DNA of 64,000 nucleotides from IMG/VR virus record IMGVR_UViG_3300042397_003635; one strand, given 5' to 3'. Positions 11,729 to 57,181 of the stretch are shown here, piece by piece; the stretch's first letter is position 1; each line of letters begins with the position of its first letter. Origin of the DNA: a virus. Taxonomy: Duplodnaviria > Caudoviricetes. Made by a program: the position numbers and the translations under genes. Under the pieces are notes generated by a model. The model did not search any database and was not told the DNA's origin. It saw only the letters and a list, made by a program, of their open reading frames with translations.

Positions 11729-11810
11729 TTTCTATTTTTTGTTATTTATTAGTAGAGTGTCGCCTCACAAATAATGGACGACTAGCCTTCTTGTACTCAA
11801 AAAATAGAAA
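11729..11810 (-). promoter_or_regulatory. Late promoter AATAAATAAC (11741-11750) inside a perfect 13-bp inverted repeat covering the translation initiation region
   Basis: TTTCTATTTTTTG at 11729-11741 and CAAAAAATAGAAA at 11798-11810; ATG at 11722. Confidence 0.7.
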
Positions 11811-11815
11811 CTGGC

Positions 11816-12640
11816 TTACGGATTACTTAAATTTATTGTAGAGCCGTCATTTCGATTAATTATCGTACCATCTGATAGGATTTCATAATCGTCGAAGTTA
11901 ATATCTATCATCTGAGAATCGGCATTTAGTGTATTTTTTGCTAAACTTGAAGTAATTTCTCTTGAATTTAAACTGTTTTCGATATAATCTATGTAGGCTT
12001 CTTTAGATAGAACCTTTACGAATTGACTAGATGGCAGTGGGTGTTCATTGCCCCAAAGGTCAATTACTGTACCAGATATTTCATATTCGCCAATTTTATC
12101 GAATCTCCAAATAAAGGTCCAGCCTGCTTCAACCTCAATTATGGTTTTTGGAGCAGATCCTGCAGTTATATCAGTTAATTTCCAAAAAACTTTAGATTTT
12201 CCCATAACCTCCCTGGCTGAGATAAACACAGGAAGATGCGTTGGAACAGTCAATCGATCAGTCGCAATTTTTAATTCGGATACGTCTAGGGAATTTTTGG
12301 TAAAAAATGCTGGAATAAATCCAACCTGTTTTCCATCTTTATATGAAATAAAACCTCGGTTTTTCCAGTATTCTGGCTCAGAAACTTTTCTAGTTACCTC
12401 GACTCCATTTTCAATAAATTTTCTTCCATATATTTGATCGTTAAGTGGTGCATATACCATAAGATTCTCAACATCAAACTCTGGAATAACTCCATATAAT
12501 TTTAGTTGTTCAAGGTTTCCCATTTGTTCCTTTGAATAAGTATCAACTGGTTCATAATAAGAGTACTTATTTGCAGAAGTAAATGTAACATTTGCACTAG
12601 GTAATCCAATTGTCGATATATTAATATAAGTTATTGGCAT
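11816..12640 (-). CDS. Putative structural protein with PKD/Ig-like domain (274 aa)
   Basis: VFWKL...FIWRFDKIGEYEISGTVIDLWGN resembles a PKD-like beta sandwich; coupled to the upstream gene by TAATG. Confidence 0.5.
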   Translation of the reverse strand: MPITYINISTIGLPSANVTFTSANKYSYYEPVDTYSKEQMGNLEQLKLYGVIPEFDVENLMVYAPLNDQIYGRKFIENGVEVTRKVSEPEYWKNRGFISYKDGKQVGFIPAFFTKNSLDVSELKIATDRLTVPTHLPVFISAREVMGKSKVFWKLTDITAGSAPKTIIEVEAGWTFIWRFDKIGEYEISGTVIDLWGNEHPLPSSQFVKVLSKEAYIDYIENSLNSREITSSLAKNTLNADSQMIDINFDDYEILSDGTIINRNDGSTINLSNP

Positions 12641-17971: not shown

Positions 17972-17985
17972 CAACTTGGCTTTTT

Positions 17986-17995
17986 GTTATTTATT
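17986..17995 (-). promoter_or_regulatory. T4-like late promoter AATAAATAAC, flanked by TGGCT/AGCCA inverted arms
   Basis: 14 nt upstream of the ATG; matches the core of the T4 late consensus TATAAATA. Confidence 0.7.
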
Positions 17996-18012
17996 AGCCA
18001 GGAATTGGCAAG

Positions 18013-18432
18013 TTAGATAGTGTAGATTTCGCTCTCGCCAGAATGACTTAGTGAGATAGTTACGATCTTTTCACCCTTTCCTATATGTTTATAGATCTTC
18101 TTGTATTCCTTGGCATATCCATTTTTTGCAATTTGGGTAAAATACGCAAATGCATTATTAGATTTTTCTTCATTAAAGTTCCTCCAATATCGTAAAAGAT
18201 CTAAAAGAGCTGATTGAATACAGTCTTCCCTGTCTAGTGGATTTTGGAATTTTAATTTTTGAATAGCACGATTTGCTAAAAGGATAAAATAGTCGATTGC
18301 TTTTGGGGAAAGTTCGCCTTTTGTATGCTGATAACCAGTTTCTTCATTTAAGAGACCGTGTTTACAACGGATAATTTCATTTGTGAAGTCTCTATTATTA
18401 ATATAGTACTTCGGGTCTTTAATTCTTGCCAT
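18013..18432 (-). CDS. gp55: T4 gp55-like late-transcription sigma factor
   Basis: YINNRDF...DCIQSALLDLLRYWRNFNEEKSNNAFAYFTQIAKN is the characteristic gp55-family signature. Confidence 0.85.
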   Translation of the reverse strand: MARIKDPKYYINNRDFTNEIIRCKHGLLNEETGYQHTKGELSPKAIDYFILLANRAIQKLKFQNPLDREDCIQSALLDLLRYWRNFNEEKSNNAFAYFTQIAKNGYAKEYKKIYKHIGKGEKIVTISLSHSGESEIYTI

Positions 18433-38646: not shown

Positions 38647-38675
38647 TTGGTATATTAACCCAAAGTAAGATAAAA

Positions 38676-42246: not shown

Positions 42247-42574
42247 TTATAAGCTTAAGCCAGAGTTACCGATTAAATACGAATTAAATTTGCATAGGGT
42301 TCTTCCGAGCTACCCAACTGAAACTGATTTTGTAGTTGATATTATTCAGTACATAATTAAGGTTTGCGAAATAAAGAATAAAGAATTTAATCCTTCCGAC
42401 TTAAAATTTTCAGCAAAAACTCTTAAATATGTGTTTAATGAAAATGAGGTAACTCCTGGTTTTAAGGATAAACTAAGAATTGTAATAAAAAATTTAATGG
42501 ATGCAGAAACTCTTGTTAAAAAGGGAGAATTTTTGTATATTAATAAAGCAGTATTTAACGAACTGTATAACTAA
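42227..42574 (+). CDS. Hypothetical protein between uvsX and helicase (position of T4 gp40)
   Basis: ORF present; equivalence to gp40 rests on position only. Confidence 0.55.
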   Translation: MMDQKINYKLKPELPIKYELNLHRVLPSYPTETDFVVDIIQYIIKVCEIKNKEFNPSDLKFSAKTLKYVFNENEVTPGFKDKLRIVIKNLMDAETLVKKGEFLYINKAVFNELYN

Positions 42575-42579
42575 AAAAT

Positions 42580-44067: not shown

Positions 44068-44082
44068 AAAAACTACAATATT

Positions 44083-44751
44083 ATGTGGAAGAAAAAAACT
44101 AAAGAAGAGGACCTATTCATTAATGAAGGTGACGATTGGTCAGCTTTAGATGGAGAAGATTTTGAAGGACTTGATCAGCTTGAAGGAGATGAAGACGATG
44201 AAATTGGACAAGTTGATCACGAATCAATTGATGATGAAGATGAAGCCAGATACCAACAACATCTAAAATTAAAAAGAGAAGATAAGATCTTTAATAATTC
44301 TTGGAATAGTGGTGAAGGAGTTAGTGACGAAATGTATCATAATACTGGAATTAGATTAGATCCAGGTCATACAGATAGTCATCTTTTAGATGGTGCATCA
44401 TATGACAAATACATGGATAAAGTTATCATTGAAAGAGATCTAAACAATATCGCGATTAATGATGAGATTTTAGTTAAATTGATGGACATTACCATGGTTG
44501 AAGGTAGAAAATTTACAAAACCTGAAATCAATCTTGCCTTTTCTAGACTTTGCGATTTAGTTAGAGAAAATAATAAAACTACATTCATTGGTCCAATCGA
44601 TGTTTTAGATTTTGTTTCAATGATTTCTCAAATGGATTTTAAAAGATTGTTTGAGTCTCTTGAATATGAATACAAAGAAGTTCTCTTATTAGAACTTAAT
44701 AATAAATTTGGAATACTAGACGGTAAAGTTAGATTTAAAAAACTATTTTAA
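44083..44751 (+). CDS. Hypothetical protein with highly acidic N-terminal region (222 aa)
   Basis: D/E-rich stretch (DGEDFEGLDQLEGDEDDEIGQVDHESIDDEDE); coupled to gp47. Confidence 0.65.
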   Translation: MWKKKTKEEDLFINEGDDWSALDGEDFEGLDQLEGDEDDEIGQVDHESIDDEDEARYQQHLKLKREDKIFNNSWNSGEGVSDEMYHNTGIRLDPGHTDSHLLDGASYDKYMDKVIIERDLNNIAINDEILVKLMDITMVEGRKFTKPEINLAFSRLCDLVRENNKTTFIGPIDVLDFVSMISQMDFKRLFESLEYEYKEVLLLELNNKFGILDGKVRFKKLF

Positions 44752-45872
44752 TGAAGTTAAACAATATAAACAAAATATTCTTAGTAGGAGACTTACACCT
44801 AGGGATTAGAAATAATTCAGTGGAGTGGGCAGATATTCAAAAAGATTTTCTTTTAGAAGTTTTGCCAAAGACTGCTCAAGAAAATGGTTTTAATCCAGAT
44901 ACAGATATTCTTATTTTAGAAGGCGATATCTTTCATTCTAGAGAATCAATTAATGTTAGAATTCAAAATGATTCAATGGAAATTTTTGAAAAACTTTCTA
45001 AAGTATTTAAGCGAGGAGTCTTTATTATTTTAGGAAACCATGATGTTTATTATAAAGACTCTAATCAAGTTAATTCAGTTAGACACCTTAAACACTTAGC
45101 CGAAAATATTCATGTATTTGAAAGTCCAGAAATCTTAACGATTAATGATACTGAAAATTGGTTAATGTTACCTTGGGTTGAAGATACTAAGACTTTAGGT
45201 AATTATGTTGCAGATTATGCAAATATGTGTAAGCGAATTGTATGTCATGCCGATATCAAAGGACTAAAGTTTAATCGATGGACTAAAGTTGAACATGGAT
45301 TAGAAATTACAGCGCTATCCCAGTATGACAGGGTTTACTCTGGTCACATCCATCACAGACAAGAACAAGATAATATATTGTATACTGGAACTCCTTACCA
45401 GATGGACAGGGGTGATCGTGGGAACACTAAGGGCTACTATATAATAGATGCTAAAGATAATTATAAAGAAACCTTTATTGAAAACCAGGCATCACCAAAT
45501 TATGTCAAATATGATATTTGCGAATTATTAGATATGAACTTAGATCAACTAAAGAGTCTATTAACTAATAATTTTGTTGACGTTATGATTGAAATTAACT
45601 TATCAAATAAAATTCCAATTAGTCAATTCTTAATGGTCTTAGAACAGGTCAAATATAGAAAAATTGAATTTTTTACATATACGAGTGATTCAACTGAATC
45701 TCCAACTGCAGATATTTCATTAGATCTTTCTAGTTCAGATAAATTTGATGCGTTTGAGATTTTTAAAACATATTTAAATTCAAAACAATATTCTCAAAGT
45801 ATGAAAAAGGATTTGGTTACCAAGTTTTTTGAAATACAAGAGAGAGCAAAACAAGAAAAAGATTATGCTTAA
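44751..45872 (+). CDS. gp47: Mre11/SbcD-like recombination nuclease (T4 gp47)
   Basis: GDLHLG, GDIFH, GNHDVY, SGHIH, YTGTPYQ metallophosphoesterase motifs. Confidence 0.92.
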   Translation: MKLNNINKIFLVGDLHLGIRNNSVEWADIQKDFLLEVLPKTAQENGFNPDTDILILEGDIFHSRESINVRIQNDSMEIFEKLSKVFKRGVFIILGNHDVYYKDSNQVNSVRHLKHLAENIHVFESPEILTINDTENWLMLPWVEDTKTLGNYVADYANMCKRIVCHADIKGLKFNRWTKVEHGLEITALSQYDRVYSGHIHHRQEQDNILYTGTPYQMDRGDRGNTKGYYIIDAKDNYKETFIENQASPNYVKYDICELLDMNLDQLKSLLTNNFVDVMIEINLSNKIPISQFLMVLEQVKYRKIEFFTYTSDSTESPTADISLDLSSSDKFDAFEIFKTYLNSKQYSQSMKKDLVTKFFEIQERAKQEKDYA

Positions 45873-46365
45873 ATTAGGATTATCTGACAAGGCTCAAGTA
45901 CTATTTGATCATAAAGATGGGATTCCATCTGTAATTTCTACTGAGCGTATTATCATTGGCGAAATTATTGAAATACTATGTGCCCAGCACATTTCAATTA
46001 GCGACGGTTTTGAAATATACGAAAGACTTCCGTCATTTGCAAATTGTGTTCAGCCTAATGAAATTAAATTGCGAGAGTTAAATCAAAAAACTGAAGAGTT
46101 ACATCAGCAGTTACTTGCAGAGCTTATGACAAATGGAGAACCGTCTGCTGAAGAAATTGAAAAATTAAAGGAACACCCAGAACTGCTTTCATTTTTTAAT
46201 TCATATAAGTGGCTAGACATGTTAATTGGAAATATTCCATATTATCATATGGCAGAGCAGCCAAATGCTAGAATTGTTTGGAATACTGAAACCAATGTTT
46301 GGAACGTTGTTGCATTTACTGAAATTTTACCTGGGAAAACTATAACTTTACCTATTAAGAAATAA
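45865..46365 (+). CDS. Degenerate SET-domain-like protein (about 166 aa)
   Basis: VISTERIIIGEIIE and GNIPYYHMAEQPNARIVW...VVAFTEILPGKTITL align by eye with SET N- and C-terminal motifs. ATG at 45865 preferred over the track's 45829. Confidence 0.5.
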   Translation: MLKLGLSDKAQVLFDHKDGIPSVISTERIIIGEIIEILCAQHISISDGFEIYERLPSFANCVQPNEIKLRELNQKTEELHQQLLAELMTNGEPSAEEIEKLKEHPELLSFFNSYKWLDMLIGNIPYYHMAEQPNARIVWNTETNVWNVVAFTEILPGKTITLPIKK

Positions 46366-46367
46366 TT

Positions 46368-48032
46368 ATGAAGATAAAAGAATTTGCTTTTAAAAATATA
46401 TGTTCATATGGAAATAAGGTTCAAACCTTTAAGTTTTCAGATGATCCAAATTTAATCCTTGTTCAAGGAACAAATGGCTCAGGCAAATCTAGTATATCTG
46501 ATGCATTAACTGTATCGATTTATGGAAAATCTGGTATCAGAAAGATTAAGGAAATTCCAAATCGTATTAATAAAAACGCCTATACTTCAGTTAAATTTGT
46601 TGCAAATAATGGAGATGAAGTTGAAATAGAAAGAGGACTAGAACCAAATTTTTCAAAGATCTTAATAAATGGAAATGACTATAACTTACCAGATAAAAGA
46701 CGAGTTGATGAATTTATTGAAGAAGAATTAGTTAAAATTCCATTTAACGTTTTCTCAAATACAATCTCTCTTTCTGTAAATGACTTTAAAAGTTTTGTTA
46801 AATTAAGCCCAGCCGATAAACGCAAGATTATCGATAAGATCTTTGGATTGGACTTAGTTAATGATATGAATCAATTGGTTAAAGAAGATGCAAAGACAGT
46901 AAAAGGAAAACAGTCTTCCAGTCAAACTGCTCTTTTAAAAAACCAGCACTTATTAGAGCAATCAGTTCAACAATTATCTGCTCTACAAGAAGATTTAACT
47001 CAAGAAAAGGAAAATCGAATTGCTCAACTAACTGATATTTTAACTAGAGCTAAAACAAAACAAGATGAAGTTAAATCTTCCTATGCTGAACTTAAAACAC
47101 AATTAGACTCTGCCAAAAATGATTTAAAGGCGGCTAGAGAATCTAAATCAGCATGTACGTTTAATATTGCAGAAATTGATAAAAAATTGGCAATTTACGC
47201 CAAAAATAAATGTCCTCATTGCTTAAGTGACTTAACTGATACTGTACATATTGGAATTAAACAACAGCTTGAAGATAACAAAAGTAAATTCTTAGAAGAG
47301 CTTACACCAATTGCGGCTAAAATATCTAATATAGAGGGTAGTTCTAGAGAATTAGAAAGTTCACAGGAAAAATTTAGAAATGATCATGCTAAATTGTCAT
47401 CTGCTTTAGATTCTGCAAAAAGAGAATTAGATTCTTTAACCCAGTCTCAAGATTCAGAAAAACAAACACAATACCTTCAAAAGATTATCGATCAATTAAA
47501 TGAAGATATTGAATCTACTAAATTAGAAATAGGCGAATTAGAAAAAGAACTTTCTGTTAACCAGGAGCTTGAAGTAATTCTTTCAGATAATGGAATGAAG
47601 AGAATCTTAATGAACCAAATTATTCCACTTCTAAATAAGAATATTCTAAGAACTTCTAAACTACTTGAATTTAAATTTGCATTTGAGTTTGATTTAGAAT
47701 TTAATCCAATTATTACCCACCTTGGAATGCAGATTTCGCCAGAGTCTCTATCCGCTGGCGAACAAAAGAAAATGAATCTAATTGTTCTTTTATGCATATT
47801 AGAATTAATTAAGATGAAGAACAATAAAATTAATCTACTTTTCTTAGATGAGATCTTTTCTTCTCTAGATTCTGTAAGCATTTACAAAGTAGTTGATTTA
47901 TTAAAAACATTTGCTAAAAAGCATAATATGACAGTATTTGTGATCTCCCATGATCCACTGCCAGAAGAGTTTTTCGATATTAAGTTATTTGTCGAAAACA
48001 AAGACCATTTTTCTGATATAAGAGTAAATTAA
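46368..48032 (+). CDS. gp46: Rad50/SbcC-like recombination ATPase (T4 gp46)
   Basis: Walker A GTNGSGKSS, coiled coil with CPHC hook, signature LSAGEQKK, Walker B LFLDE, ISH. Confidence 0.93.
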   Translation: MKIKEFAFKNICSYGNKVQTFKFSDDPNLILVQGTNGSGKSSISDALTVSIYGKSGIRKIKEIPNRINKNAYTSVKFVANNGDEVEIERGLEPNFSKILINGNDYNLPDKRRVDEFIEEELVKIPFNVFSNTISLSVNDFKSFVKLSPADKRKIIDKIFGLDLVNDMNQLVKEDAKTVKGKQSSSQTALLKNQHLLEQSVQQLSALQEDLTQEKENRIAQLTDILTRAKTKQDEVKSSYAELKTQLDSAKNDLKAARESKSACTFNIAEIDKKLAIYAKNKCPHCLSDLTDTVHIGIKQQLEDNKSKFLEELTPIAAKISNIEGSSRELESSQEKFRNDHAKLSSALDSAKRELDSLTQSQDSEKQTQYLQKIIDQLNEDIESTKLEIGELEKELSVNQELEVILSDNGMKRILMNQIIPLLNKNILRTSKLLEFKFAFEFDLEFNPIITHLGMQISPESLSAGEQKKMNLIVLLCILELIKMKNNKINLLFLDEIFSSLDSVSIYKVVDLLKTFAKKHNMTVFVISHDPLPEEFFDIKLFVENKDHFSDIRVN

Positions 48033-48041
48033 TATAGAACT

Positions 48042-48926
48042 ATGCATACTTACAAAGGAACATCATTTGCGGAAGCTTACCAAAAGTCATTAATCGATTT
48101 AATGGACAATGGTGACTTATGCGAAACGCGAGGAACTACAAGCAGAGAATTATTAAATGTTTCTCTAGAAATCACTGATCCAAGTCAGTGTATGTATACC
48201 AATATGACTAGGTCTACCCAGACTAAATATATTGCAGCTGAATTTTTATGGTATTATGCTGGTCGTAATGATGTAGCATTTATTTCAAAATATGCAAAAT
48301 TTTGGGAGCAGATTCAAAATCCAAATGGTACCGCTAACTCTGCTTATGGTAACCTAATATTTAAACCAAAATCTCTTGGTGGAATTACTCAATACGAATG
48401 GGCAATTGCATCATTAGCAAAGGATAAAGATAGTAGACAAGCAATTCTTCACTTTAATACGCCAGAACATCAATATAATGGTAATAAAGATTTTGTTTGC
48501 ACAATGTATGGAATTTTTCATATTAGACACAATAAACTAAACTTTAGTGTCTATATGAGATCTAATGATGCTATTTGGGGTACACCAACTGATGTTGCAT
48601 TTTTCTGTTCTCTACAAATGCAGGCTCTTGCTCATCTTAAGGAATTTTATCCAGAATTAGAGTTAGGAACCTATACTCACCATGCAAACTCATATCATAT
48701 TTATGATAGACACTATGATCTAGTTAGTCGTATGTTAGTTGGAGAGTTCGTTCCATCTAGACTGCCTTCAATTAAAACTAATCTTGTTTCAATGTCAGGT
48801 CACCCTACACAAGAGTTTAATGACATTTTTGAATTTATTGAACATGATCAAGATGATATTTTAATACTACAAGAAAAAGAAGATCTATTAACTTGGATCG
48901 TAAATCAATTTGGCGATGATAACTAG
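48042..48926 (+). CDS. Thymidylate synthase-family enzyme, T4 gp42 (dCMP hydroxymethylase)-like
   Basis: EFLWY, ANSAYG, DKDSRQAI, catalytic DFVCT, MRSNDAIWGTPTD, SYHIY. Asp at the E. coli ThyA Asn177-equivalent position. Confidence 0.8.
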   Translation: MHTYKGTSFAEAYQKSLIDLMDNGDLCETRGTTSRELLNVSLEITDPSQCMYTNMTRSTQTKYIAAEFLWYYAGRNDVAFISKYAKFWEQIQNPNGTANSAYGNLIFKPKSLGGITQYEWAIASLAKDKDSRQAILHFNTPEHQYNGNKDFVCTMYGIFHIRHNKLNFSVYMRSNDAIWGTPTDVAFFCSLQMQALAHLKEFYPELELGTYTHHANSYHIYDRHYDLVSRMLVGEFVPSRLPSIKTNLVSMSGHPTQEFNDIFEFIEHDQDDILILQEKEDLLTWIVNQFGDDN

Positions 48927-49362
48927 ATACGATATTGTATACATGAAAATGGCCTCAGAATGGGGACAATTATCGAATGCTCGTCGTAAAAAAGTTGGAG
49001 CGCTCCTAGTTAAGAATAACACTATTATAGCTGATGGTTATAATGGAACTCCATCTGGTTTTGAAAATGAATGCGAAAATCCTTTATTTGATGCAGATGG
49101 TAATTTTTTAGACTATGAAACAAAATGGTATGTTTTGCACGCCGAATCTAATGCTTTAGCTAAAGTTGCAAAATCTACTCAATCTTCTGAGGGTTCTACT
49201 CTTTATGTTACAATGTCTCCGTGTAGAGAGTGTAGCAAATTAATTCTTCAAGCAGGAATTAAAAGAGTAGTCTATTCGGAATCATACAGAGATTCTGCCG
49301 GTCTCGACCTCTTAAAAAAGGCAGGGGTTGATGTAGTTCAGATTCTACCCGAATCAGAATAA
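48916..49362 (+). CDS. cd: dCMP deaminase
   Basis: KVGALLV, GYNGTPSG, HAESNAL, LYVTMSPCRECSK zinc motifs. Confidence 0.93.
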   Translation: MITRYDIVYMKMASEWGQLSNARRKKVGALLVKNNTIIADGYNGTPSGFENECENPLFDADGNFLDYETKWYVLHAESNALAKVAKSTQSSEGSTLYVTMSPCRECSKLILQAGIKRVVYSESYRDSAGLDLLKKAGVDVVQILPESE

Positions 49363-49379
49363 AAAATTCCATTCGTATT

Positions 49380-49781
49380 TTGACAGAAGATATTGCAACC
49401 AGAGAATTAACAATTGTTTTCGTAAGAGATTATAAAACATTCGTTGAACACTTTTCTAAAAAATGTAAAAGTGATTACGTTCTTAACATTAATAAGATCG
49501 TAAAAGAGAAATTTCAAACTGAAATCTTTATTCCAAATAAAGTTCAGGCTTTTTTATTAAATTATGAAATTTCCAAACTTATTGATAAGGTAATTAAAAT
49601 AAAGAATCAAAAGTATTCCAGACTAATCTACTTGAATACAGAGCTTTCTCCCACTGGAATTTTAAATTCAATTAACTTTTTAAAGACCACATATACATGG
49701 GTCGAATTTGATTTTACTGTTATTGATCCAGATAAGGAATTCCATGCCGTACTAAAGGACATAAAAAAAGGAGAGCTATAA
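49380..49781 (+). CDS. Hypothetical protein (133 aa)
   Basis: TTG start; last gene of the plus-strand operon; alternating alpha/beta pattern, no motif recognised. Confidence 0.55.
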   Translation: MTEDIATRELTIVFVRDYKTFVEHFSKKCKSDYVLNINKIVKEKFQTEIFIPNKVQAFLLNYEISKLIDKVIKIKNQKYSRLIYLNTELSPTGILNSINFLKTTYTWVEFDFTVIDPDKEFHAVLKDIKKGEL

Positions 49782-49794
49782 AGTTCTCCTTTTT
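49765..49794. terminator. Bidirectional intrinsic terminator between convergent operons
   Basis: AAAAAGGAGAGCT-ATAA-AGTTCTCCTTTTT. Confidence 0.8.
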
Positions 49795-49813
49795 AATTTA
49801 AATTAATTTCTAA

Positions 49814-50620
49814 TTATTCTTCACTAGCTTTCTTTAATCTTAGAATACCAGCTTGGGCTTCTTTGTAATCACTTACAAATTTTACAGCTCTTTTATCAGA
49901 ATCTTTATCTTTCCAATCACTTAAACTTTCCTTTGTATCTTTTCCATTATGGTGTGGATACGCAAATACAGTCATGTGTCCATCTTTTCTAAAATCGTAA
50001 GTTGCATAAGTTTCTTCACCTTCTGCTGATTCAGTAATAGTATCAAAGTCTTCATCTAATTCTTCATCAGATTCGTCCTCTTCTGGCATTTCTGAAACTT
50101 TTTGAATTGCAGCTTTAAATATTTCAACGCATTCTTCTTTTTCAATTTCCATCTTTTCGCAAGCGATTTCTAAAATTTCTTTTAGTTCATCACTAAACTC
50201 TTCCATAAACATTTCAAGAGCTTCTTCGTCGATTTCTGGAGTTTCTTCTAGATCTGTGTCTTTAATTTCATCAGCTTCTTCTTCGAACATATAGTTTTCA
50301 AATTGAGGAACATGACTTTCTTTTACAATCTTAACTCCCATTGTAGGAATTGCAGTTAAAGGTTCTTCTGTTTTAATTTTAGCAGTACGACTAGGTACAT
50401 CGCTATTAAATGCTTTCCAATAACCATCATAATTGTGGTTTTTTCCGCCATTTTCAAAGTTAGCATCTCTTTGTGCAACATTTGTCCAATCTTTTAAAGA
50501 CTTTCGTTTAGATTTATCAAATGACTCAGTTTCACTAGGTCCACCAAATGATGGAGCTTTCATGTCCATGAATCTCTTAAAGTCTTTAACATCGTTACTT
50601 TTTAGGTTAAAAATATCCAT
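49814..50620 (-). CDS. Acidic hypothetical protein, candidate prohead core/internal head protein (268 aa)
   Basis: Very Glu/Asp-rich centre; VPQFENYMFEE and ITES motifs; immediately downstream of the tail tube gene. Confidence 0.55.
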   Translation of the reverse strand: MDIFNLKSNDVKDFKRFMDMKAPSFGGPSETESFDKSKRKSLKDWTNVAQRDANFENGGKNHNYDGYWKAFNSDVPSRTAKIKTEEPLTAIPTMGVKIVKESHVPQFENYMFEEEADEIKDTDLEETPEIDEEALEMFMEEFSDELKEILEIACEKMEIEKEECVEIFKAAIQKVSEMPEEDESDEELDEDFDTITESAEGEETYATYDFRKDGHMTVFAYPHHNGKDTKESLSDWKDKDSDKRAVKFVSDYKEAQAGILRLKKASEE

Positions 50621-50641
50621 TTTAAAGTGGTTTTTAAATTT

Positions 50642-51232
50642 TTAGAATTGTCCATTTCTTACTTCAGTATAACTATCAGCAATAAAGCTAAAAGTCGCAT
50701 TATAAATTGAATCTGAAGTATAATCCAATTTCATATCTTCAACCAAATTAGTATCTCCATAAACAAATACTGGAGAGAAATTAAATTCTCTATAAACGTC
50801 ACCTGCACGGTTGTGTACTCCAACATAAACTCCGGCTCCGTTTGGCGCATAGTCTTTCTTAAGACCTTGTCTACCAGTCAATGGATCGTATACTAGGTTT
50901 GCCCAAGCTCTAAATAAGTTGTAAACATACATCTCATTAGCATTGTTTAAGTTGACTTCAAAATCAATTGTAAACTTAGCGCCAGTTTCTTTAGGTTTTG
51001 CACCTGCAAAATATCTCTTAGAGAATCTGTAGCTTTGGTCAACTGTTCCACCAGTACCAGCTTGTTCTGGAAGTCCAGTAATCTTTTTTACGTGTTCAAC
51101 TAATAAATCATTAATAGCTGTATTATTGATACTAGAAGGCGGCGTAATAATTACCGTAAACTGGTTAAGGTATAACGGTTCAAATAATTGCTGGCCTACT
51201 TTTGAATTTTTAAAATGTGGTAACCCTGCCAT
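50642..51232 (-). CDS. gp19: Tail tube protein (T4 gp19-like)
   Basis: EPLYLNQFTVIITPP, FEVNLN, WANLVYDPLTGRQGLKKDY; 196 aa; late promoter AATAAATAAA at 51251-51260. Confidence 0.8.
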   Translation of the reverse strand: MAGLPHFKNSKVGQQLFEPLYLNQFTVIITPPSSINNTAINDLLVEHVKKITGLPEQAGTGGTVDQSYRFSKRYFAGAKPKETGAKFTIDFEVNLNNANEMYVYNLFRAWANLVYDPLTGRQGLKKDYAPNGAGVYVGVHNRAGDVYREFNFSPVFVYGDTNLVEDMKLDYTSDSIYNATFSFIADSYTEVRNGQF

Positions 51233-51267
51233 TTATGTTGGACTTTTTTGTTTATTTATTCGCTAGA

Positions 51268-52446
51268 TTATGATATATCTCTACGCTCTGTTTCCTCCCA
51301 TTTAGAAATGAGTTCCTTAAAGCGTTTTTCCTTTTCTTCTGGAGTTAGAGCTGCATTTCTTTCATCAAATTCAAATGCATTAATTTGAGCCTTAAGTTGT
51401 TTTGCACTAATTTCACTATATGCCTTAGGCTCCTCCTTTTCAGGCATAGTTTCATTTCCAATAAGCGTCAATTCCAAGGTAGGAACGACCGCAACAATTA
51501 GGTTTCCAGGATAAGATGGATTATCACTATTAAAATCTTCAAGCTTCATATCGTAACTTGCACCAAAAATCTTAGTTAATCCATTTGATGCAGGCGTAAT
51601 TGTAATAGTAAACTTATCAGAATTTGATATTTTATCATCTCCTAAATCTTTAAGCATGTTATTTGACATTAAGTATCTAAAGCTAAATGTCTTAGTTCCT
51701 TTACCCTCTTCAATCATTCGAAGTTTAGACGTTTTAATTGTAACGTAATAATTACAGCAGTCTTCTTCAGATGATTCTTCGATAGTGCACTCTTTTTCAA
51801 CTTCTTCCAGTGTTTTAAACGGTCCAGCTACAAGTTTAACCTTTCCCTTATCTTCAAGGTCAGTTCCAACTAGCGACTGTACAGGTTCAGCTTCTTTTCC
51901 TATTTCAACTTCAATTGAGTGTACAACCTTTTTTTCATCTTCCATTGTTAAACAATAAAAAAACGTTGCCATTCCTGGAGGTAGAAGTTTCTTTTCTTCT
52001 GGTTCGCCTAATAGTTTTTGGGGTTCAGGTCCAGTCAATAACTTTTGACCAGGCTCCTCTTGTTTTGCGTACTGTGCAGCATTATATGGAACCGGCAAAC
52101 CTGGTTTTTGTGTAGTTGCAAGTTCACGACTTCCTTGAACAGCCGGTAAGTTTGATCCACCTGCCGGAAGCTCCAATGCTTCATTTTTGGTAGAAGTTTC
52201 TGCCTTTTTAGCATTAACTTTTTCGCAAACATGTTTATGAATTTCTAATAGTAATTCACGAATCTTTTCTGCACTTGTATACTTAACATAGGTTGAAGTA
52301 CCTTCAGCTTTAACATAATCCAAATCTGGATATAAAGTCATGCTATGCAGAACGGTCTTTTGATCATTCTGATTCCATTTTGGCTCACAGTCTTTGATTT
52401 GCCACTTAAGTTCATGACTTTGGAAAATTTCGCAAATTACGCTCAT
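51268..52446 (-). CDS. Hypothetical protein (392 aa) with Pro-rich low-complexity linker
   Basis: KLLTGPEPQKLLGEPEEKKLLPPG short repeats; lies in the late head/tail cluster. Confidence 0.6.
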   Translation of the reverse strand: MSVICEIFQSHELKWQIKDCEPKWNQNDQKTVLHSMTLYPDLDYVKAEGTSTYVKYTSAEKIRELLLEIHKHVCEKVNAKKAETSTKNEALELPAGGSNLPAVQGSRELATTQKPGLPVPYNAAQYAKQEEPGQKLLTGPEPQKLLGEPEEKKLLPPGMATFFYCLTMEDEKKVVHSIEVEIGKEAEPVQSLVGTDLEDKGKVKLVAGPFKTLEEVEKECTIEESSEEDCCNYYVTIKTSKLRMIEEGKGTKTFSFRYLMSNNMLKDLGDDKISNSDKFTITITPASNGLTKIFGASYDMKLEDFNSDNPSYPGNLIVAVVPTLELTLIGNETMPEKEEPKAYSEISAKQLKAQINAFEFDERNAALTPEEKEKRFKELISKWEETERRDIS

Positions 52447-52450
52447 TTAA

Positions 52451-52930
52451 TTATGCTTGTGGTTTTTCTCCTCTAAAGGCCTTACCTTTATTAGAATCTT
52501 TTCTTTCTGGATCAACTGGCTTGTAGTTTGCCCAGATTTCATTGTATATTCTGCAGCTTGCGCCCATGAAATTGATAATTCCAACAAATTTCTTACGATC
52601 ATCGCCAGTCATTCTAGAAACTTTCTTTCCAATACGACGAGCATCATCAAGATCTAATTCTTCTTCATCATCTTTTCCAACTAATTCTTTAAGAGAATTT
52701 CTGGATTTTTCATTGATTGCAATAAAAGACTCGAATGTCATTGATTCAGTTGGAGTATCAGACTCATGGTCTGAAACATACGAATCAAAACGATCAACTT
52801 CATCACCAGTCATTAAACCAGTTGCATACGTTACAAATCTTTCATAAAGATCTGCACGGTCTTGCATTGGAATTCCGGCTTTGTCCATATACTGGACTAT
52901 GCTGCGAGGTACGCTTAATGTAATCCTCAT
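52451..52930 (-). CDS. Hypothetical protein, candidate internal head protein (159 aa)
   Basis: Internal MTFESFIAINEK motif; located in the capsid cluster. Confidence 0.55.
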   Translation of the reverse strand: MRITLSVPRSIVQYMDKAGIPMQDRADLYERFVTYATGLMTGDEVDRFDSYVSDHESDTPTESMTFESFIAINEKSRNSLKELVGKDDEEELDLDDARRIGKKVSRMTGDDRKKFVGIINFMGASCRIYNEIWANYKPVDPERKDSNKGKAFRGEKPQA

Positions 52931-52941
52931 CGAGTTTTTAA

Positions 52942-53295
52942 TTATTTTTGTTTGTTAGCCATCTTAGGGTCAACTGACTTAGTGATAGCTTTTCCTTTGA
53001 TAACTAAATTACCGAAACTAGGATCTACTGACTTAGTGATAGCCTTTCCTTTAGGGTTTGCTTCAGCTAAGTTAGAATTAACTGACTTAGAGATTTTAGA
53101 ACCTTTAGCAGCTTTAAGATCAGTCATTTTAGCGTCAACTGACTTTTTAACGCTAGAACCCTTAGGCATATCTAATTTAGCCATTTTAGGATCTACGCTT
53201 TTTCCTAATTTAGAACCTGTTGCAGGTAATACTGCCAAGTTTTGGTTAACTTTTTCAGTTAGGAACTCTGTGTAAGACAATACTGGGTTTGCCAT
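52942..53295 (-). CDS. Basic repeat protein with five ~18-aa KGxxIxKSVDPxM repeats; candidate DNA-binding internal head protein
   Basis: Lys-rich tandem repeats after an N-terminal VLSYTEFLTEK; 26-bp near-identical DNA copies at 52973-52998 and 53027-53052. Confidence 0.65.
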   Translation of the reverse strand: MANPVLSYTEFLTEKVNQNLAVLPATGSKLGKSVDPKMAKLDMPKGSSVKKSVDAKMTDLKAAKGSKISKSVNSNLAEANPKGKAITKSVDPSFGNLVIKGKAITKSVDPKMANKQK

Positions 53296-53296
53296 T

Positions 53297-53374
53297 TTAT
53301 TGTTTTCTTTTTTTAATTACTCGATCTTCTCTGGGCACTCCTGGTCTCTCCAATCTTTCAATATGAGTATTCAT
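53297..53374 (-). CDS. Possible 25-aa ORF (MNTHIERLERPGVPREDRVIKKRKQ)
   Basis: Downstream of late promoter GATAAATAAC (53451-53460); stop 1 nt before the next ATG. Confidence 0.3.
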   Translation of the reverse strand: MNTHIERLERPGVPREDRVIKKRKQ

Positions 53375-53477
53375 ATTAAAATAATATTAAGGCCGTCAGA
53401 GGTCTCAGATTAATTTCTTTTTATAATTACCTAATTAGACAATTATTTTAGTTATTTATCTGACCTCTTAAAATAAG

Positions 53478-53499
53478 AAAGCCCTCCGAAGAGGGCTTT
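53478..53499 (-). terminator. Intrinsic terminator with a cUUCGg tetraloop after the major capsid gene
   Basis: Minus strand AAAGCCCTC-TTCG-GAGGGCTTT-CTTATTTT; UUCG hairpin terminators are typical of T4-like phages. Confidence 0.9.
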
Positions 53500-53523
53500 A
53501 CTTTAATATAACCTGGGTTAAGA

Positions 53524-55041
53524 TTATGCTAATTTAGCAAGAGAACCAGATGCCAATGAGAATTGAACATACTGAGTTCCAGGATGCCATCCAGCTTCAA
53601 CCAATGCATATCTTGACTTCATACCGATTTTCGGAGAGAAAGTACCCTCAGAAATAGTTTGAAGAGATTCTGCCATGATGTAAGGCATGAATTTAAGACC
53701 TGGCTCTTCGTCAGCACCTTTACGACCAATTAATACAGTCGCATCGTCAAACTTCAAGTTAGGATCAACGTATACGTTAAGACCGTAAACTTTACCAGCA
53801 GGGTACAATGTACCAGCAGCAGAACCTAAATCGTTGTTGAAAGGAGCAATTGAGTAACCAGCAGCATCAGCCATAGCAGATGCAACTTTAGCACCAACTA
53901 CTGCGAAAGTACCAGCACCAAAACGTGCTCTGTGGTAGATCAAGTTAGCAGATTCTAACATCTTGCTAGCAAGTCTTCTTTGAGCAGTTGTTACGTTTTC
54001 GAAACCACCAGTATAAGTAGCAGCAGATAAGTCTAATGTAGCAGAATAACCTTCAGCTGTTGCAGCTGCAGCAGCGTGAGTTGTTGCTAAATTCTTAACT
54101 TTAGAAACGATTTCTTTGTTGATTGTTTGAGCAAGCTCGTTAACAGCAACATTCTCTAACATAGAGATTGCGTCGAAATTCCAAACTCTGTTAAGATCTT
54201 GGATTTGCTCAACTGTTGCAGAGATAGAAACTTGAGAAGTTTTAGCCTCAACAAACTTAGTGAACATTTTAAGACCCATTTGACGGAATTTAGAAGTTTC
54301 ACCAGCACCTCTATTCATAGATTGAGTGTACTCTTGACCATCTAAGAAAGGACCATACCAAGCAGAAGCTTCAGCTGTACCTGCAGGAGCTGCAGTTGAA
54401 GTGAAACCAGAGATATGATTTTCTAAAGCAGATACTAATTCTACTTCAGCTTCTGAAACAGCAATACCTGCAGCAACCGCTTGAGCAGCAACTGAAGTAG
54501 AAGCGTCTGTACCAGAAATAACTTTGTAGATGTATTTTGCATCTAGACGAGATACACCAACATAAGCAAACTCTCTGTCACCAGTGTTATCTGGAGTTGT
54601 ATCAAGAGTTGCAGTTTTGATCAAATATGGTTCAAACTCACCAGTTACGTTACCACCTTGGTAAACATAATCTAAGTAAGGAAGGAAACCAACTGGAGAG
54701 TCCATAGGAACTACACCAACTAGGTCAAAACCAATAGTTTTTGCTGCTACTTGAATAGCAACTGGCAATAAACTTGGGAATTTATCACCTGAACCATTTG
54801 CACCAGTTGTTGGAGCTAATGGGTTACCGATTCCACTGATAGAACCTGGTTGTTGATAGAATAAACCTGGAGCAACAGCTGATTCGTTGATTGCACCTGC
54901 GTTTTCGAACATTGCGTGATAGTGGCAATAATCTACTAACCAAGGACGTGAATCTGCGTTTACACCATAGCTTTCTAAAACTGGAGCCCAAGTTGACTTA
55001 ACAGAGGCATCGTTTAGTCTTTTAAATACTTTTGTAGACAT
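53524..55041 (-). CDS. gp23: Major capsid protein (T4 gp23-like)
   Basis: IGFDLVGVVPMDSPVGF, ELAQTINKEIV, GKVYGLNVYVDP, FMPYI, PKIGMKSRYAL; probable cleavage site INE/S. Confidence 0.93.
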   Translation of the reverse strand: MSTKVFKRLNDASVKSTWAPVLESYGVNADSRPWLVDYCHYHAMFENAGAINESAVAPGLFYQQPGSISGIGNPLAPTTGANGSGDKFPSLLPVAIQVAAKTIGFDLVGVVPMDSPVGFLPYLDYVYQGGNVTGEFEPYLIKTATLDTTPDNTGDREFAYVGVSRLDAKYIYKVISGTDASTSVAAQAVAAGIAVSEAEVELVSALENHISGFTSTAAPAGTAEASAWYGPFLDGQEYTQSMNRGAGETSKFRQMGLKMFTKFVEAKTSQVSISATVEQIQDLNRVWNFDAISMLENVAVNELAQTINKEIVSKVKNLATTHAAAAATAEGYSATLDLSAATYTGGFENVTTAQRRLASKMLESANLIYHRARFGAGTFAVVGAKVASAMADAAGYSIAPFNNDLGSAAGTLYPAGKVYGLNVYVDPNLKFDDATVLIGRKGADEEPGLKFMPYIMAESLQTISEGTFSPKIGMKSRYALVEAGWHPGTQYVQFSLASGSLAKLA

Positions 55042-55058
55042 TTTGTTTTAAAAATTTT

Positions 55059-57092
55059 TTAGTTGTTTGCTCTTCTTTTTAGAGCGTCGAGGTATGCATT
55101 ACCATAACCTCTTTGATGTTCCGCAACTTTCTCAATCGAGATAAAACCTTCTCTACCTTGGCTTTCGTTGATGTGTTGCGCTGTTTTATTTTGTTTTTCG
55201 AAATAAATTCTTTCATTAACTCCTCTTAAATCTCTGCTCTCCCAGAAGTTTTTAACTTGGTAAGGAGTGTTAAGAACAGTTAAAGAAGCTTGAGCTTCTA
55301 AACGGCTCTTTTCTGCAGGAGTCATGCTTTCAAAAACTTCTTTGAATTTAGCAGGCATGAACTTAATTAAGTTTGGAGTATTTTCTTGTTGTTTGTTAAG
55401 AACTGATTCAATGATTTGGATAACGTCTTCTTCTTTGAAGTAAACTGCACCTGAAAGAGCTTCAATAATAGCAGTTTTTTGAGTTTGATCTAAATTAAAG
55501 AATCTTGATTTATTATCTTCGTTAAGAAGTTTTAAGAATGGATATCTGCTTTCTAATACAGATTTAGCAGAGTTATCTTTGATATGCTTAACAATTGAGT
55601 TAACTGAACTTACAATATCAGAAACATTAGAACCTTCAGAAACTTGATAGTTTACAGACTCATCTAATTTTTCGATTTGGCTAAATGCAGAGGCAGTTTT
55701 AGTAGAAAGACCTACTTTACCTTCATTTAATTCAGTTGCAATATACTCAGAATATTTAATTCCTCTTTCAAGGTTTTCAGCAAGATAGTTAGCGTAACCA
55801 ATAGAGTGCTTTAAGTTTTCAGCAACGTATTCAGTGTATCTGATACCTTGTTCTGATTTTTCAGCAACATACTCAGAATATTGAATTCCTTTATCAAGGT
55901 TTTCTGCTAAGTATTCTGTGTATTTAATATTTTTGTTTACGTTTTCAGCAATATGCTCAGAGTAATCAATTGCATTATTTAGGTTTTCTCCAACGTATTC
56001 AGCATAACCGATACCTTGTTCAACTTTTTCTGCAAGATAATCAGAATAATCAATTACTTTATTAACTTTCTCAGCAACGTGCTCAGAATAATTAATTGAT
56101 TTGTTCATCATTCCAGAAAGGTAATTGTTATATTCAATTACTTTGCTAAGCTCGCTTGAAAGATAGTTAACATACTCAACTAATTGTTCATTAGTTGCAG
56201 GTGTTTGTTCTTCATCTTGTTCAGCATTTGGATCTTCAACCACTGGAGCATCAGCAGGTTGGTCGTCTTCGGTAACTGCGAAGTTATCAACCATTTTATC
56301 TACACTTTCTTTAAGTGCGTCAAACTTGCCTTTAACAAGTTCAGAGTATTGGTTGAACGCTTCTTTCGTTACAAACTCATTAGTCATGTGTTTGTTATTA
56401 TTTTCCATAGTTTGTACTATCTCTTCATTATTTATCTTATAAACTTTGATTGATTCCTCGAGGTTTAAGCTTTCAGAAATATCAACCAATTTATTTACAA
56501 TTGACGTAGATTTAATATTTTCCAAAGATTCGAAAAGCATAGAGTAATTGCTTTGGAAGCTCTCGTTAACAGATCTTCTAAGAACAGCTTCACTGAAACC
56601 AGGTTCAGCTACTAGATCGTATGTGAATATTCTTTGGATTTTTACTTTACCTTCATTCATTACCTGACCAGCGGCTCTTGAAGAAGTTGAAATTGTACAG
56701 CCTGACTCAACTAGAGTTTTTGCAATCTGGCCAGCGGGAGTGTTAAGCAGACGTACTTTAATTTTTACGTTATTAGAATTTTGATCGTACCATAATTTCT
56801 CAACTACGTGAGAAACGTTTTTAAGTGAAACGTCAAAATTTTGAGGGTGGTCTAGCTCACCAAATAATTGACCTCTTTCGATTTTCTCGTTTAGGTATTC
56901 TAGGTGAGGAAGATACTCTGCTTTTTCGTAGATACGGTTGTTGTTATTCTTTGTGTCAAATACTGCACAAACACCTTCCATAACGATATCACCATTATCT
57001 AGTTTTGCTGAGTTTAAACCTTCATTTACTCTTTCTATAATGAAGAGCATATCTGAGGTTTTTGTAATTTCGTTTACGCCTGTAAGGACCAC
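55059..57092 (-). CDS. gp21: Prohead protease (gp21-like, U9/S80) fused to a coiled-coil scaffold region
   Basis: NNNNRIYEK, LFGELDHP, SHVVEKLW, LLNTPAGQIAK, SSRAAG, YDLVAEPGF; followed by 14-aa repeats. Confidence 0.88.
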   Translation of the reverse strand: MVLTGVNEITKTSDMLFIIERVNEGLNSAKLDNGDIVMEGVCAVFDTKNNNNRIYEKAEYLPHLEYLNEKIERGQLFGELDHPQNFDVSLKNVSHVVEKLWYDQNSNNVKIKVRLLNTPAGQIAKTLVESGCTISTSSRAAGQVMNEGKVKIQRIFTYDLVAEPGFSEAVLRRSVNESFQSNYSMLFESLENIKSTSIVNKLVDISESLNLEESIKVYKINNEEIVQTMENNNKHMTNEFVTKEAFNQYSELVKGKFDALKESVDKMVDNFAVTEDDQPADAPVVEDPNAEQDEEQTPATNEQLVEYVNYLSSELSKVIEYNNYLSGMMNKSINYSEHVAEKVNKVIDYSDYLAEKVEQGIGYAEYVGENLNNAIDYSEHIAENVNKNIKYTEYLAENLDKGIQYSEYVAEKSEQGIRYTEYVAENLKHSIGYANYLAENLERGIKYSEYIATELNEGKVGLSTKTASAFSQIEKLDESVNYQVSEGSNVSDIVSSVNSIVKHIKDNSAKSVLESRYPFLKLLNEDNKSRFFNLDQTQKTAIIEALSGAVYFKEEDVIQIIESVLNKQQENTPNLIKFMPAKFKEVFESMTPAEKSRLEAQASLTVLNTPYQVKNFWESRDLRGVNERIYFEKQNKTAQHINESQGREGFISIEKVAEHQRGYGNAYLDALKRRANN
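55720..56190 (-). repeat. About 11 tandem 14-aa coding repeats (I-x-Y-S/T/A-E-Y/H-V/L/I-A-E-N/K-L/V) in the protease-scaffold protein
   Basis: IDYSDYLAEKVEQG IGYAEYVGENLNNA IDYSEHIAENVNKN IKYTEYLAENLDKG IQYSEYVAEKSEQG and further copies. Confidence 0.9.
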
Positions 57093-57181
57093 GTTGCCTG
57101 ATTTTTTTTATTATTTATATCATATCGATAGAAATAATTCGCAACAAGTGACAAGTTGACACCTATTTAGTCTTATTTATT
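57090..57181 (-). promoter_or_regulatory. Late promoter TATAAATAAT (57110-57119) in an extended inverted repeat that pairs with the GTG start; second AATAAATAAG at 57172-57181
   Basis: Minus strand CAC-TT-GTTGC-GA-ATTATTT-C-TATC-GATAT-GATA-T-AAATAAT-...-GCAAC-GTG. Confidence 0.65.

Follow-up and report, generated by a model that had tools for sequence, protein, structure and literature searches.

Leaders and Late Promoters of the Phage

Several late promoters of this phage lie inside inverted repeats, which raises the question of whether the repeats serve to mask the translation starts downstream of them. The window, that is, the whole 64,000-nt stretch of DNA analysed here (33% G+C), comes from a large T4-like lake phage with a Bacteroidota (Flavobacterium-type) host. 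A first-pass annotation had singled out five loci, a to e, and had proposed that read-through RNA folds over the start at each of them, while RNA initiated at the enclosed promoter leaves it free. Counts of the extended promoter box were made on two IMG/VR contigs of the same phage (256 kb), and the promoter set comprised 24 promoters in the genome of the window's phage and 35 non-redundant loci across the family. At gathering thresholds, Rfam gave no family anywhere in the window, and blastn returned no match when the sheath region was compared with the phage collection. The features discussed below are collected in Table 1.

The ATAAATA boxes are genuine T4-type late promoters, in agreement with the annotation. 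The extended box ATAAATAAYWAAAA (ATAAATAA-Y-W-AAAA) occurs in 17 copies in the 256 kb, 16 of them on one strand, versus 1 copy of the reversed control. The window holds 11 copies of ATAAATAA, of which seven are intergenic, though intergenic DNA makes up 2.7% of the sequence, and all seven intergenic copies are oriented to the downstream gene. The distance from box to start codon is 11–35 nt, mostly 14–22 nt. The late-promoter consensus reads ATAAATAA-C/T-A/T-AAAA, frequently with AAAAATAG after the box, and the -10-like T4 box TATAAATA is depleted (2 observed vs. 11 expected). The box before the sheath gene is retained in relatives down to 39–43% protein identity. The phage encodes a gp55-like sigma, with which the ATAAATAA boxes are presumably read.

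In Bacteroidota hosts, mRNAs without a Shine-Dalgarno sequence are expected. A Shine-Dalgarno-like 4-mer precedes only 2 of 49 genes, and the fraction of A at positions -20 to -1 is 0.54, compared with 0.33 in the whole window, which bears out the earlier description of the leaders as A-rich and devoid of Shine-Dalgarno sites. The late promoters would yield very short, unstructured leaders of this kind. Metatranscriptome contigs from four runs were mapped to positions 37500–57400; contigs cannot show starts or levels, and uncovered parts are uninformative. Within these limits, RNA contigs span the 51232 junction and bridge locus e.

Table 1. Positions of promoters, repeat arms, hairpins and related features in the window.
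Feature	Position	Strand	Remarks
Locus a, late box ATAAATAA	11742–11749	-	followed by CAAAAAATAGAAAAAACAA and ATG 11722
Locus a, 3' arm CAAAAAATAGAAA	11729–11741	-	A-rich promoter-proximal segment common to other late promoters (AAAAATAG)
Locus a, 5' arm TTTCTATTTTTTG	11798–11810	-	T-tract like the tails of the phage's terminators
Locus a, whole long-range structure	11716–11817	-	MFE -26 kcal/mol, z = -4.15; encloses the promoter
Locus b, hairpin TGGCT / AGCCA	17977–18000	-	box ATAAATAA (17987–17994) in loop; z = -1.61
gp55-like late sigma gene	18013–18432	-	phrog_234 'late sigma transcription factor', E = 4.6e-18; directly upstream of locus b
Locus c, 8-bp hairpin AAGTCTTC / GAAGACTT	21697–21727	+	variant box TTAAATAA (21706–21713) in loop; TTG start 21731
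Locus d, arms GTCCT-AAGTTA / TAACTT...AGGAC	38014–38050	-	around box 38031–38038; 4 nt before sheath ATG 38009
Late box before gene 50642–51232	51252–51259	-	no repeat bracketing the box
Capsid-gene terminator AAAGCCCTC / GAGGGCTTT (53478–53499) and tail	53443–53499	-	T-rich tail TTATTTTA pairs perfectly with TAAAATAA over 8 bp
Locus e, helix CAC..GTTGC / GCAAC-GTG (CACTTGTTGC / GCAACGTG) of the first-pass annotation	57092–57149	-	touches GTG 57092
Locus e, hairpin H2, AAUUAUUU-c-UAUC / GAUA-u-AAAUAAU	57110–57138	-	box TATAAATAAT in 3' arm (57111–57118 = ATAAATAA)
Locus e, hairpin H1	57143–57167	-	begins at DnaJ stop codon; 3' arm overlaps the 5' arm of the annotated helix

Inverted Repeats Compared with Chance

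All five inverted repeats are present where the annotation had placed them, with ATAAATA in the loop or the 3' arm at every locus. Since the box is preceded by the 5' arm, that arm would be missing from promoter-initiated RNA, a statement of geometry only. Their stability relative to shuffled sequence is uneven. Local-fold z-scores are -4.15 at locus a (0/200 shuffles), -2.61 at c (4/200), -2.49 at d (3/200), -1.61 at b (17/200) and -1.28 at e (20/200). As a mismatched control, the upstream flank of one promoter was paired with the leader of another, giving 552 non-cognate pairs. A perfect complement of at least 6 bp was found in 68% of these pairs, of at least 7 bp in 25% and of at least 8 bp in 8.5%, with a maximum of 11. 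Because non-cognate pairs match as well, the arms at b–e represent the ordinary outcome of any flank and leader in this genome; the expectation that the repeats would exceed chance thus held for locus a alone.

No enrichment of pairing with the promoter's own flank was detected. For the 24 promoters, the pairing energy was not stronger with the own flank (-8.9 vs. -9.5 kcal/mol for cross pairs; permutation p = 0.82), and the longest perfect complement was 6.2 for own and 6.0 for cross pairs (permutation p 0.19–0.47). Complementarity to the own versus other flanks likewise did not differ in the family (Wilcoxon p ~0.45–0.49, 35 loci); with 24–35 loci these tests have limited power, and RNAduplex is noisy. 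A recurrent CTGGCT before four late boxes, together with downstream CCAG-type complements, was considered as a signal and discarded, as it falls within the non-cognate background. A perfect repeat of at least 13 bp arose somewhere in 7 of 60 block-shuffled windows.

An internal control for incidental bracketing is provided by the capsid-gene terminator, whose tail contributes to an 8-bp repeat around the late box 53452–53459. There is no start codon within ~150 nt of this box, and the repeat therefore has nothing to mask. Other late promoters have no bracketing repeat, including 51252–59 and those of L186, L192 and L193.

Predicted start accessibility in read-through RNA was 0.58 at the motif loci and 0.54 in other genes, and the fraction of the leader paired with upstream sequence was 0.28 and 0.29, respectively. 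Dropping the upstream RNA raised the predicted accessibility by 0.14 at the motif loci versus 0.10 in other genes (p = 0.18).

Substitutions in the arms of relatives are one-sided and weaken the pairing, with none compensated, so the arm covariation on which the annotation had proposed to judge the idea was not found. The arms are not conserved either, being absent from relatives at 31–64% identity that keep the promoter box. Covariation is impossible where promoter or leader function fixes the 3' arm, and its absence is accordingly weak evidence.

The genes upstream of the repeats are of early type only at b (the gp55-like sigma and a RuvC-like gene) and c (GroEL). At a and e, the preceding genes belong to co-oriented blocks of structural appearance, and upstream of d no gene runs in the same direction. 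Silencing of early read-through RNA, the T4 rationale, therefore fits two loci at most.

Locus a

The perfect 13-bp arms of locus a, ending 6 nt before ATG 11722, form the longest perfect inverted repeat of the window (loop of at most 60 nt) and are longer than the complements in all 552 non-cognate pairs. An outer helix, AAGCCA (11812–11817) with UGGCUU (11716–11721), prolongs the 13-bp helix, which itself ends at -7, and pairs the UG of the AUG as well as the second codon. On removal of the upstream RNA, the predicted accessibility of the start rises from 0.38 to 0.66, a gain that ranks about sixth among 48 genes.

Box, leader and start differ at 0–2 of 39 columns in relatives at 83–93% identity. 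Each of the six distinct relatives has the long-range helix in its MFE structure; their z ranges from -0.65 to -4.25 and is only -0.65 to -1.2 in three of them. Across four lineages, 8 of the 56 sites of the 5' arm changed (0.14), compared with ~0.37 per site at 4-fold sites, and in a fifth lineage the arm was replaced; none of its changes is compensated. Such a slow rate would be expected under purifying selection for pairing with a fixed partner. The repeat unites a terminator-like T-tract with the shared promoter-proximal AAAAAATAG, and its arms are built from sequences that are conventional in this phage. The terminator tail of another locus, L186, matches the locus a leader over 11 nt, and the locus a 5' arm matches the leaders of two other promoters over 10 nt. 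The 5' arm was also considered as a terminator tail proper, a reading that was rejected because no adequate stem precedes the arm in any relative. Locus a is a reasonable candidate for masking, and the single one.

Loci b and c

At locus b, the arms TGGCT (17996–18000) and AGCCA (17977–17981) are accompanied by a second short helix, which is weakened in L108, L110 and L111. The true start is probably ATG 17971, and in L111 TTA replaces TTG with the ATG kept; the start sits in an internal loop. Shuffled upstream sequence pairs with the leader equally well (p = 0.55). At the junction between gp55 and the structural gene, relatives at 31–38% identity have the box with no complementary flank.

For locus c, relatives were gathered via the upstream GroEL gene, as a search with the 1413-aa gene returned the same phage only. 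The perfect arms (21697–21704 and 21720–21727) stop 3 nt short of TTG 21731, the helix ending at -4. Of the eight pairs, seven are constant among the relatives, and three relatives lack the outer one. The hairpin spans the GroEL stop codon; in distant relatives, canonical terminators occupy the site behind GroEL. The 5' arms of both b and c show almost no variation in relatives with diverged neighbouring sequence.

Loci d and e

At locus d, GTCCT has become GTCCG without compensation in five relatives, and z weakens there to -1.0 from about -2.5. When 115 nt are folded, the outer arm GUCCU pairs preferentially with a competing upstream AGGAC, and in read-through RNA the start is largely free of pairing (0.67, 115–130-nt contexts). 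One metatranscriptome contig ends at 38027, 4 nt past the box, which is a weak hint, since the end of a contig does not prove a transcription start. A second copy of ATAAATAA lies upstream of locus d (38085–38092) and another upstream of locus e (57173–57180), both conserved in near relatives.

The annotation had described arms at locus e that pair with the GTG itself. The sequence is there and the helix can form in the window's strain. In L083, L084, L087 and L089 it is degraded without compensation, its covariation does not exceed the shuffle control (91/500), and the start is mostly unpaired in read-through RNA (0.64, 115–130-nt contexts). The arms also compete with a conserved hairpin. An outer helix, GCCU/AGGC, was dismissed as a leader mask, since it has 4 bp only and its L089 version is a register shift, not clean covariation.

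Hairpin H2 is distinct from the annotated helix and ends ~17 nt before GTG 57092, leaving the start codon uncovered. Each of the six folded relatives can form it, L083/L084 only through a 10-bp alternative that was found by eye and is not in their MFE. Its apical pairs are changed on both sides in L089, and G-U replacements also occur. In H1, a G-C pair is replaced by A-U on both sides in L083/L084, along with wobble changes. The covariation score of H1 and H2 together exceeds that of all 500 shuffles. The palindrome at e was also considered as a DNA-level operator or a divergent promoter pair. This is the less likely reading, as the sense-strand G-U replacements speak for RNA and the opposite strand carries no gene.

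Origin and Possible Roles of the Repeats

The most probable reading, to which we assign a probability of roughly 0.65, is that most of the repeats around these T4-type late promoters are incidental and do not constitute a dedicated, systematic translational mask. Most of them would be by-products of two sequence conventions, T-rich tracts upstream, often terminator tails of the form TTTCTATTTT, and a shared A-rich promoter-proximal segment downstream. In DNA of 33% G+C, any such flank and leader would give a perfect complement of 5–8 bp, and we infer that selection has given the repeats no role in masking. Translation of read-through RNA might nevertheless be reduced at locus a and, to a lesser degree, at b and c, either as a side effect or through adaptation of the individual locus. 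The second of these, in which a promoter-enclosing hairpin at a, and possibly at b and c, hides the leader or start on longer upstream RNA and confines translation to RNA from the own late promoter, appears unlikely. It draws on the stability of locus a, the extension of its helix to the AUG with the accompanying shift in accessibility, the presence of the helix in the MFE of all relatives and the slower-than-neutral change of the 5' arm in four lineages, as well as on the T4 precedent and on the position of b and c at real junctions of early-type genes and late boxes, with arms almost invariant in near relatives. However, the genes before a look like the same late operon, which leaves no early read-through to silence, and its arms are convention sequences with a z that decays in three relatives and no compensation. 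At b, the fold is weak (z = -1.6), the leader pairs equally with shuffled upstream sequence, and the distant junctions retain the box without the flank. A general device, with all structural-operon heads masked by promoter-internal hairpins and two-level tuning at d and e, was the proposal of the annotation and is very improbable. The geometry holds at five loci and the second ATAAATAA copies are kept in near relatives, but pairing is not enriched over non-cognate pairs, several late promoters have no bracketing repeat, accessibility is ordinary, and the arms are absent from distant relatives. At d and e, moreover, the starts are mostly unpaired and the arms mutate uncompensated, those of e in competition with a conserved hairpin.

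The structures may instead affect the fate of the RNA and not its translation, which we regard as improbable. This would concern H1, H2, the hairpin at the GroEL stop of c and the long helix at a, acting in 3'-end protection or weak termination, as 5'-end stabilisers of transcripts from the upstream boxes, or as T7-like processing sites at which a double-strand RNase would divide polycistronic RNA. The placement of H1 at the DnaJ stop and of the c hairpin across the GroEL stop is consistent with such a role, as are the canonical terminators after GroEL in distant relatives, and the both-sided changes and G-U replacements in H1 and H2 fit a sense-strand RNA. The helix at a, ~19 bp with an internal loop, has a plausible length for a double-strand RNase substrate. 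Against this, the hairpins have no U-tract such as is seen after the clear terminators of the phage, and the RNA contigs that bridge e imply that termination there is incomplete. A narrower conjecture, unlikely as a whole, is that in phages of Bacteroidota, where mRNAs lack Shine-Dalgarno sequences, translation of some late genes (that of locus a and perhaps those of b and c) depends on promoter origin through a leader-hiding hairpin. Separately, H2, whose 3' arm carries the head-operon box, may represent a kind of RNA control element that has not been described.

Promoter-dependent masking, if true, would provide a first instance of the T4 e/soc logic where initiation does not use a Shine-Dalgarno sequence. 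Should locus a prove functional, a classic translational control of T4 would be found to reach hosts with Shine-Dalgarno-independent initiation, a modest advance with no new principle. The late-promoter consensus and leader architecture are defined here for widespread, large freshwater phages of the Flavobacterium type, which aids annotation and predictions of timing; cultured Flavobacterium jumbophages have been described elsewhere (PMC13573597). In AT-rich phage DNA, repeats that bracket promoters call for a non-cognate-pair control before they are given a regulatory reading.

Comparison with Known Systems

The T4 precedent had been correctly stated by the annotation: at e, soc, 49 and I-TevI, a hairpin sequesters the translation initiation region and one or more late promoters lie within it (Uzan and Miller 2010, PMC3014915). 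The loci described here resemble these genes in having a late promoter inside a potential hairpin, with the 3' arm in or beside the leader, and in that the promoter's own transcripts would be free of the 5' arm. They differ in that there is no Shine-Dalgarno sequence to occlude, that only locus a is more stable than chance, with no compensatory changes, and that early genes lie upstream only at b and c.

Like the late promoters of T4, which are served by gp55, gp33 and the gp45 clamp, those of this phage consist of an AT-rich box at a fixed short distance before late structural genes, and a gp55-like sigma is encoded beside one of the boxes. Unlike in T4, the T that opens the octamer is not conserved, Shine-Dalgarno sequences are missing from the leaders, and the box carries a conserved A-rich extension (C/T-A/T-AAAA, often AAAAATAG). 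Phage terminator–promoter cassettes offer a further parallel. Loci a–d differ from them in having no canonical terminator stem before the T-rich tract or 5' arm, whereas a GC-rich stem and T-tract do stand directly before late boxes at 53478–53499 (box 53452–53459) and in L186, L192 and L193. With a terminator T-tract on one side and an A-rich leader on the other, the repeat arises automatically.

Late Promoters and Gene Content

Genes for a T4-like head and tail are present in the window, together with a T4-style set for replication and nucleotide metabolism (Table). Its G+C content is 33%, its capsid protein is closest, among named relatives, to that of the Lak megaphages of Prevotella (~36% identity), and many IMG/VR and lake-metagenome contigs match it at 85–100% identity. 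A Shine-Dalgarno-like 4-mer was found in only 2 of 49 genes, and A makes up 54% of the 20 nt preceding start codons; both features fit a Bacteroidota host, in whose mRNAs an absence of Shine-Dalgarno sequences and A-rich leaders are expected. Chaperone genes encode GroEL, GroES and a DnaJ-like co-chaperone (20091–21683, 34417–34731 and 57163–58026), the last lying within the structural block directly upstream of the prohead protease. A 1413-aa gene has an apparent TTG start at 21731 (+), from which coding is backed by the codon-position substitution pattern in relatives; no canonical in-frame start lies upstream of it after the stop at 21707.

Coordinates of the loci, genes and sequence elements discussed
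Feature	Coordinates	Strand	Remark
Locus a	11729–11810		inverted repeat
Locus b	17975–18016		inverted repeat
Locus c	21697–21727		inverted repeat
Locus d	38014–38050		inverted repeat
Locus e	57090–57150		inverted repeat
gp55-like late sigma gene	18013–18432		
Tail sheath gene	34797–38009		
Gp23-type major capsid protein gene	53524–55041	minus	
S77-type prohead protease gene	55059–57092		
Canonical GC-stem terminators	34751–34773, 49765–49794, 53478–53499		
H1	57143–57167	minus	starts at DnaJ stop codon; 3' arm overlaps 5' arm of locus e repeat
H2	57110–57138	minus	3' arm holds box TATAAATAAT
Invariant block AGTACAAGAAGGCTA	11783–11797	minus	locus a spacer
Invariant block ATTATTTG	11768–11775	minus	in loop of a short stem; stem sequence varies between relatives

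The window has 11 copies of the motif ATAAATAA, seven of them in intergenic regions (2.7% of the sequence), and all seven point at a downstream gene. The extended form ATAAATAA-Y-W-AAAA is present in 17 copies across two contigs of the same phage (256 kb), 16 of them on one strand, versus a single copy of the reversed control. Boxes are positioned 11–35 nt, mostly 14–22 nt, from the start codon, and precede genes in minus-strand blocks that contain the sheath, capsid, protease and baseplate genes; the plus-strand replication genes are not preceded by boxes. Upstream of the sheath gene, the box and its A-rich tail (gATAAATAATTAAAAATA) are kept in relatives down to 39–43% protein identity. Intergenic placement, the reversed control and this conservation support the assignment of ATAAATA-type boxes as late promoters made in the first-pass annotation. 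One metatranscriptome contig ends at 38027, 4 nt past the box at 38031–38038, which does no more than hint at a start site. The depth of freshwater metatranscriptome contigs (37500–57400), itself a poor measure, is far greater over the sheath, capsid and protease genes than over the adjacent dUTPase gene, which fits active infections in lakes.

A further late box (56428–56435, minus strand) is internal to the prohead protease gene and precedes an in-frame ATG at 56408 (codon 229) by 20 nt. Both are kept in relative L089 (77% identity), and the arrangement points to a nested product made of the C-terminal ~449 aa, possibly a scaffold, with a late promoter of its own. The sequence CTGG(C/T)(T/G) stands just 5' of four late boxes of the phage (17996–18001, minus strand, in the window, and L183, L191 and L192); it is either a candidate upstream element of the promoter or a chance occurrence.

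Inverted Repeats and Chance Pairing

Five inverted repeats around late boxes (loci a–e) had been proposed to mask the downstream start, with box-initiated RNA lacking the 5' arm. All five are present. No perfect inverted repeat of the window with a loop of 60 nt or less is longer than the 13-bp one of locus a, which is lengthened by an extra AAGCCA/UGGCUU helix that takes in the UG of the AUG. Its fold has an MFE of −26 kcal/mol and z = −4.15; loci c and d have z ~ −2.5 to −2.6, and loci b and e fall within the shuffled-sequence range. When 115 nt are folded, the outer 5' arm of locus d prefers an upstream AGGAC as its partner.

The upstream flank of each promoter was paired with its own leader, and then with the leaders of other promoters. 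Among 24 promoters of the genome, own pairs have a mean pairing energy of −8.9 kcal/mol versus −9.5 kcal/mol for non-cognate pairs (permutation p = 0.82), and the mean longest perfect complement is 6.2 versus 6.0 nt. Non-cognate perfect complements of at least 6, 7 and 8 nt occur in 68%, 25% and 8.5% of cases, with a maximum of 11. For 35 non-redundant promoters from the window and relatives, own flanks were no better than other or shuffled flanks (p ~0.45–0.49). The observation of the repeats is partly confirmed, locus a being the sole one above all non-cognate pairs. Despite this, the arms of locus a are convention sequences: a terminator tail from another locus (TTTTTCTATTT) complements its leader over 11 nt, and its 5' arm has 10-nt matches to two other promoters' leaders, which stem from the frequent presence of AAAAATAG after the box. 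A natural control is found downstream of the capsid gene. There, a perfect 8-bp repeat around the box at 53452–53459 pairs the T-rich terminator tail TTATTTTA with the promoter-proximal TAAAATAA, and no start codon that could be masked lies within ~150 nt.

The ~150 nt between this box and the next start at 53295 (−) contain no ORF of more than 25 codons (53296–53450) and include a 9-bp inverted repeat (53377–53385/53442–53450); the stretch could serve as a long leader or give rise to a small RNA. Three canonical GC-stem terminators show that the phage uses standard intrinsic terminators: one follows the capsid gene, and the other two separate convergent genes and are flanked by A/T runs on either side.

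Start Accessibility and Conservation of the Arms

Read-through RNA had been proposed to fold and hide the start. The predicted unpaired probability at positions −15 to +3 is 0.58 for the motif loci versus 0.54 for other genes, the leader share paired to upstream sequence is 0.28 versus 0.29, and none of the five loci beats upstream-sequence shuffles (p = 0.17–0.70). Removal of the upstream RNA yields a predicted accessibility gain of +0.14 at the five loci versus +0.10 across the remaining 43 genes (p = 0.18), with a clear gain only at locus a (0.38 to 0.66).

Compensatory arm changes were not found among the relatives. At locus a, the 3' arm is invariant. The 5' arm differs at 1–3 positions in each of four lineages, and a fifth lineage has another sequence in its place; one of the changes creates a G-U pair and the others break pairs, none is compensated, and z-scores drop to −0.65 to −1.2 in three relatives. 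This 5' arm evolves more slowly than 4-fold sites in the four lineages (0.14 versus 0.37), which leaves room for possible weak selection. The arms of locus b do not vary in near relatives, with a second helix weaker in three; at the same junction in relatives at 31–38% identity, the box directly follows the stop codon with no complementary flank. Seven pairs of locus c are invariant, and the outer pair is missing in three relatives. At locus d, GTCCT is changed to GTCCG in five relatives without compensation, and the arms are absent from distant relatives. The helix proposed for locus e is degraded in 4 of the 10 sequences that are distinct, and it does not exceed the shuffle control (91/500).

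Locus e holds two other hairpins, H1 and H2, in the stretch from the DnaJ stop codon to the late promoter of the head operon. For four of the six relatives that were folded, both belong to the MFE structure; that of L083/L084 includes H1 but engages the 5' arm of H2 elsewhere, H2 being only possible as a 10-bp alternative. Both-sided changes and G-U replacements give a covariation score above all 500 shuffles; since one or two lineages account for the changes, the comparison provides moderate evidence for H1 and H2 as conserved hairpins. H2 stops ~17 nt upstream of the GTG, leaving the start uncovered.

Elsewhere, the GroEL stop codon at locus c lies within a small hairpin (21676–21696, +) that shows one both-sided change (G-C to A-U) between relatives; canonical terminators take its place in distant relatives. 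The spacer of locus a (11768–11797, −) contains two invariant blocks, and the TAAGCC found at the stop codon upstream does not vary either.

Comparison with Start Masking in T4

Masking in T4 silences early read-through (PMC3014915), whereas early-type genes lie upstream here only at locus b (gp55-like sigma and a RuvC-like gene) and locus c (GroEL). The genes upstream of loci a and e belong to structural-looking, co-oriented blocks, and locus d has no co-directional upstream gene. With this gene order, and with non-cognate flanks pairing equally well, a systematic start-masking device at structural operon heads is not supported. Locus a is a testable single candidate for masking, with about one chance in five. 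The evidence in this phage is short of the standard of T4-type masking, an idea that is sound in general.
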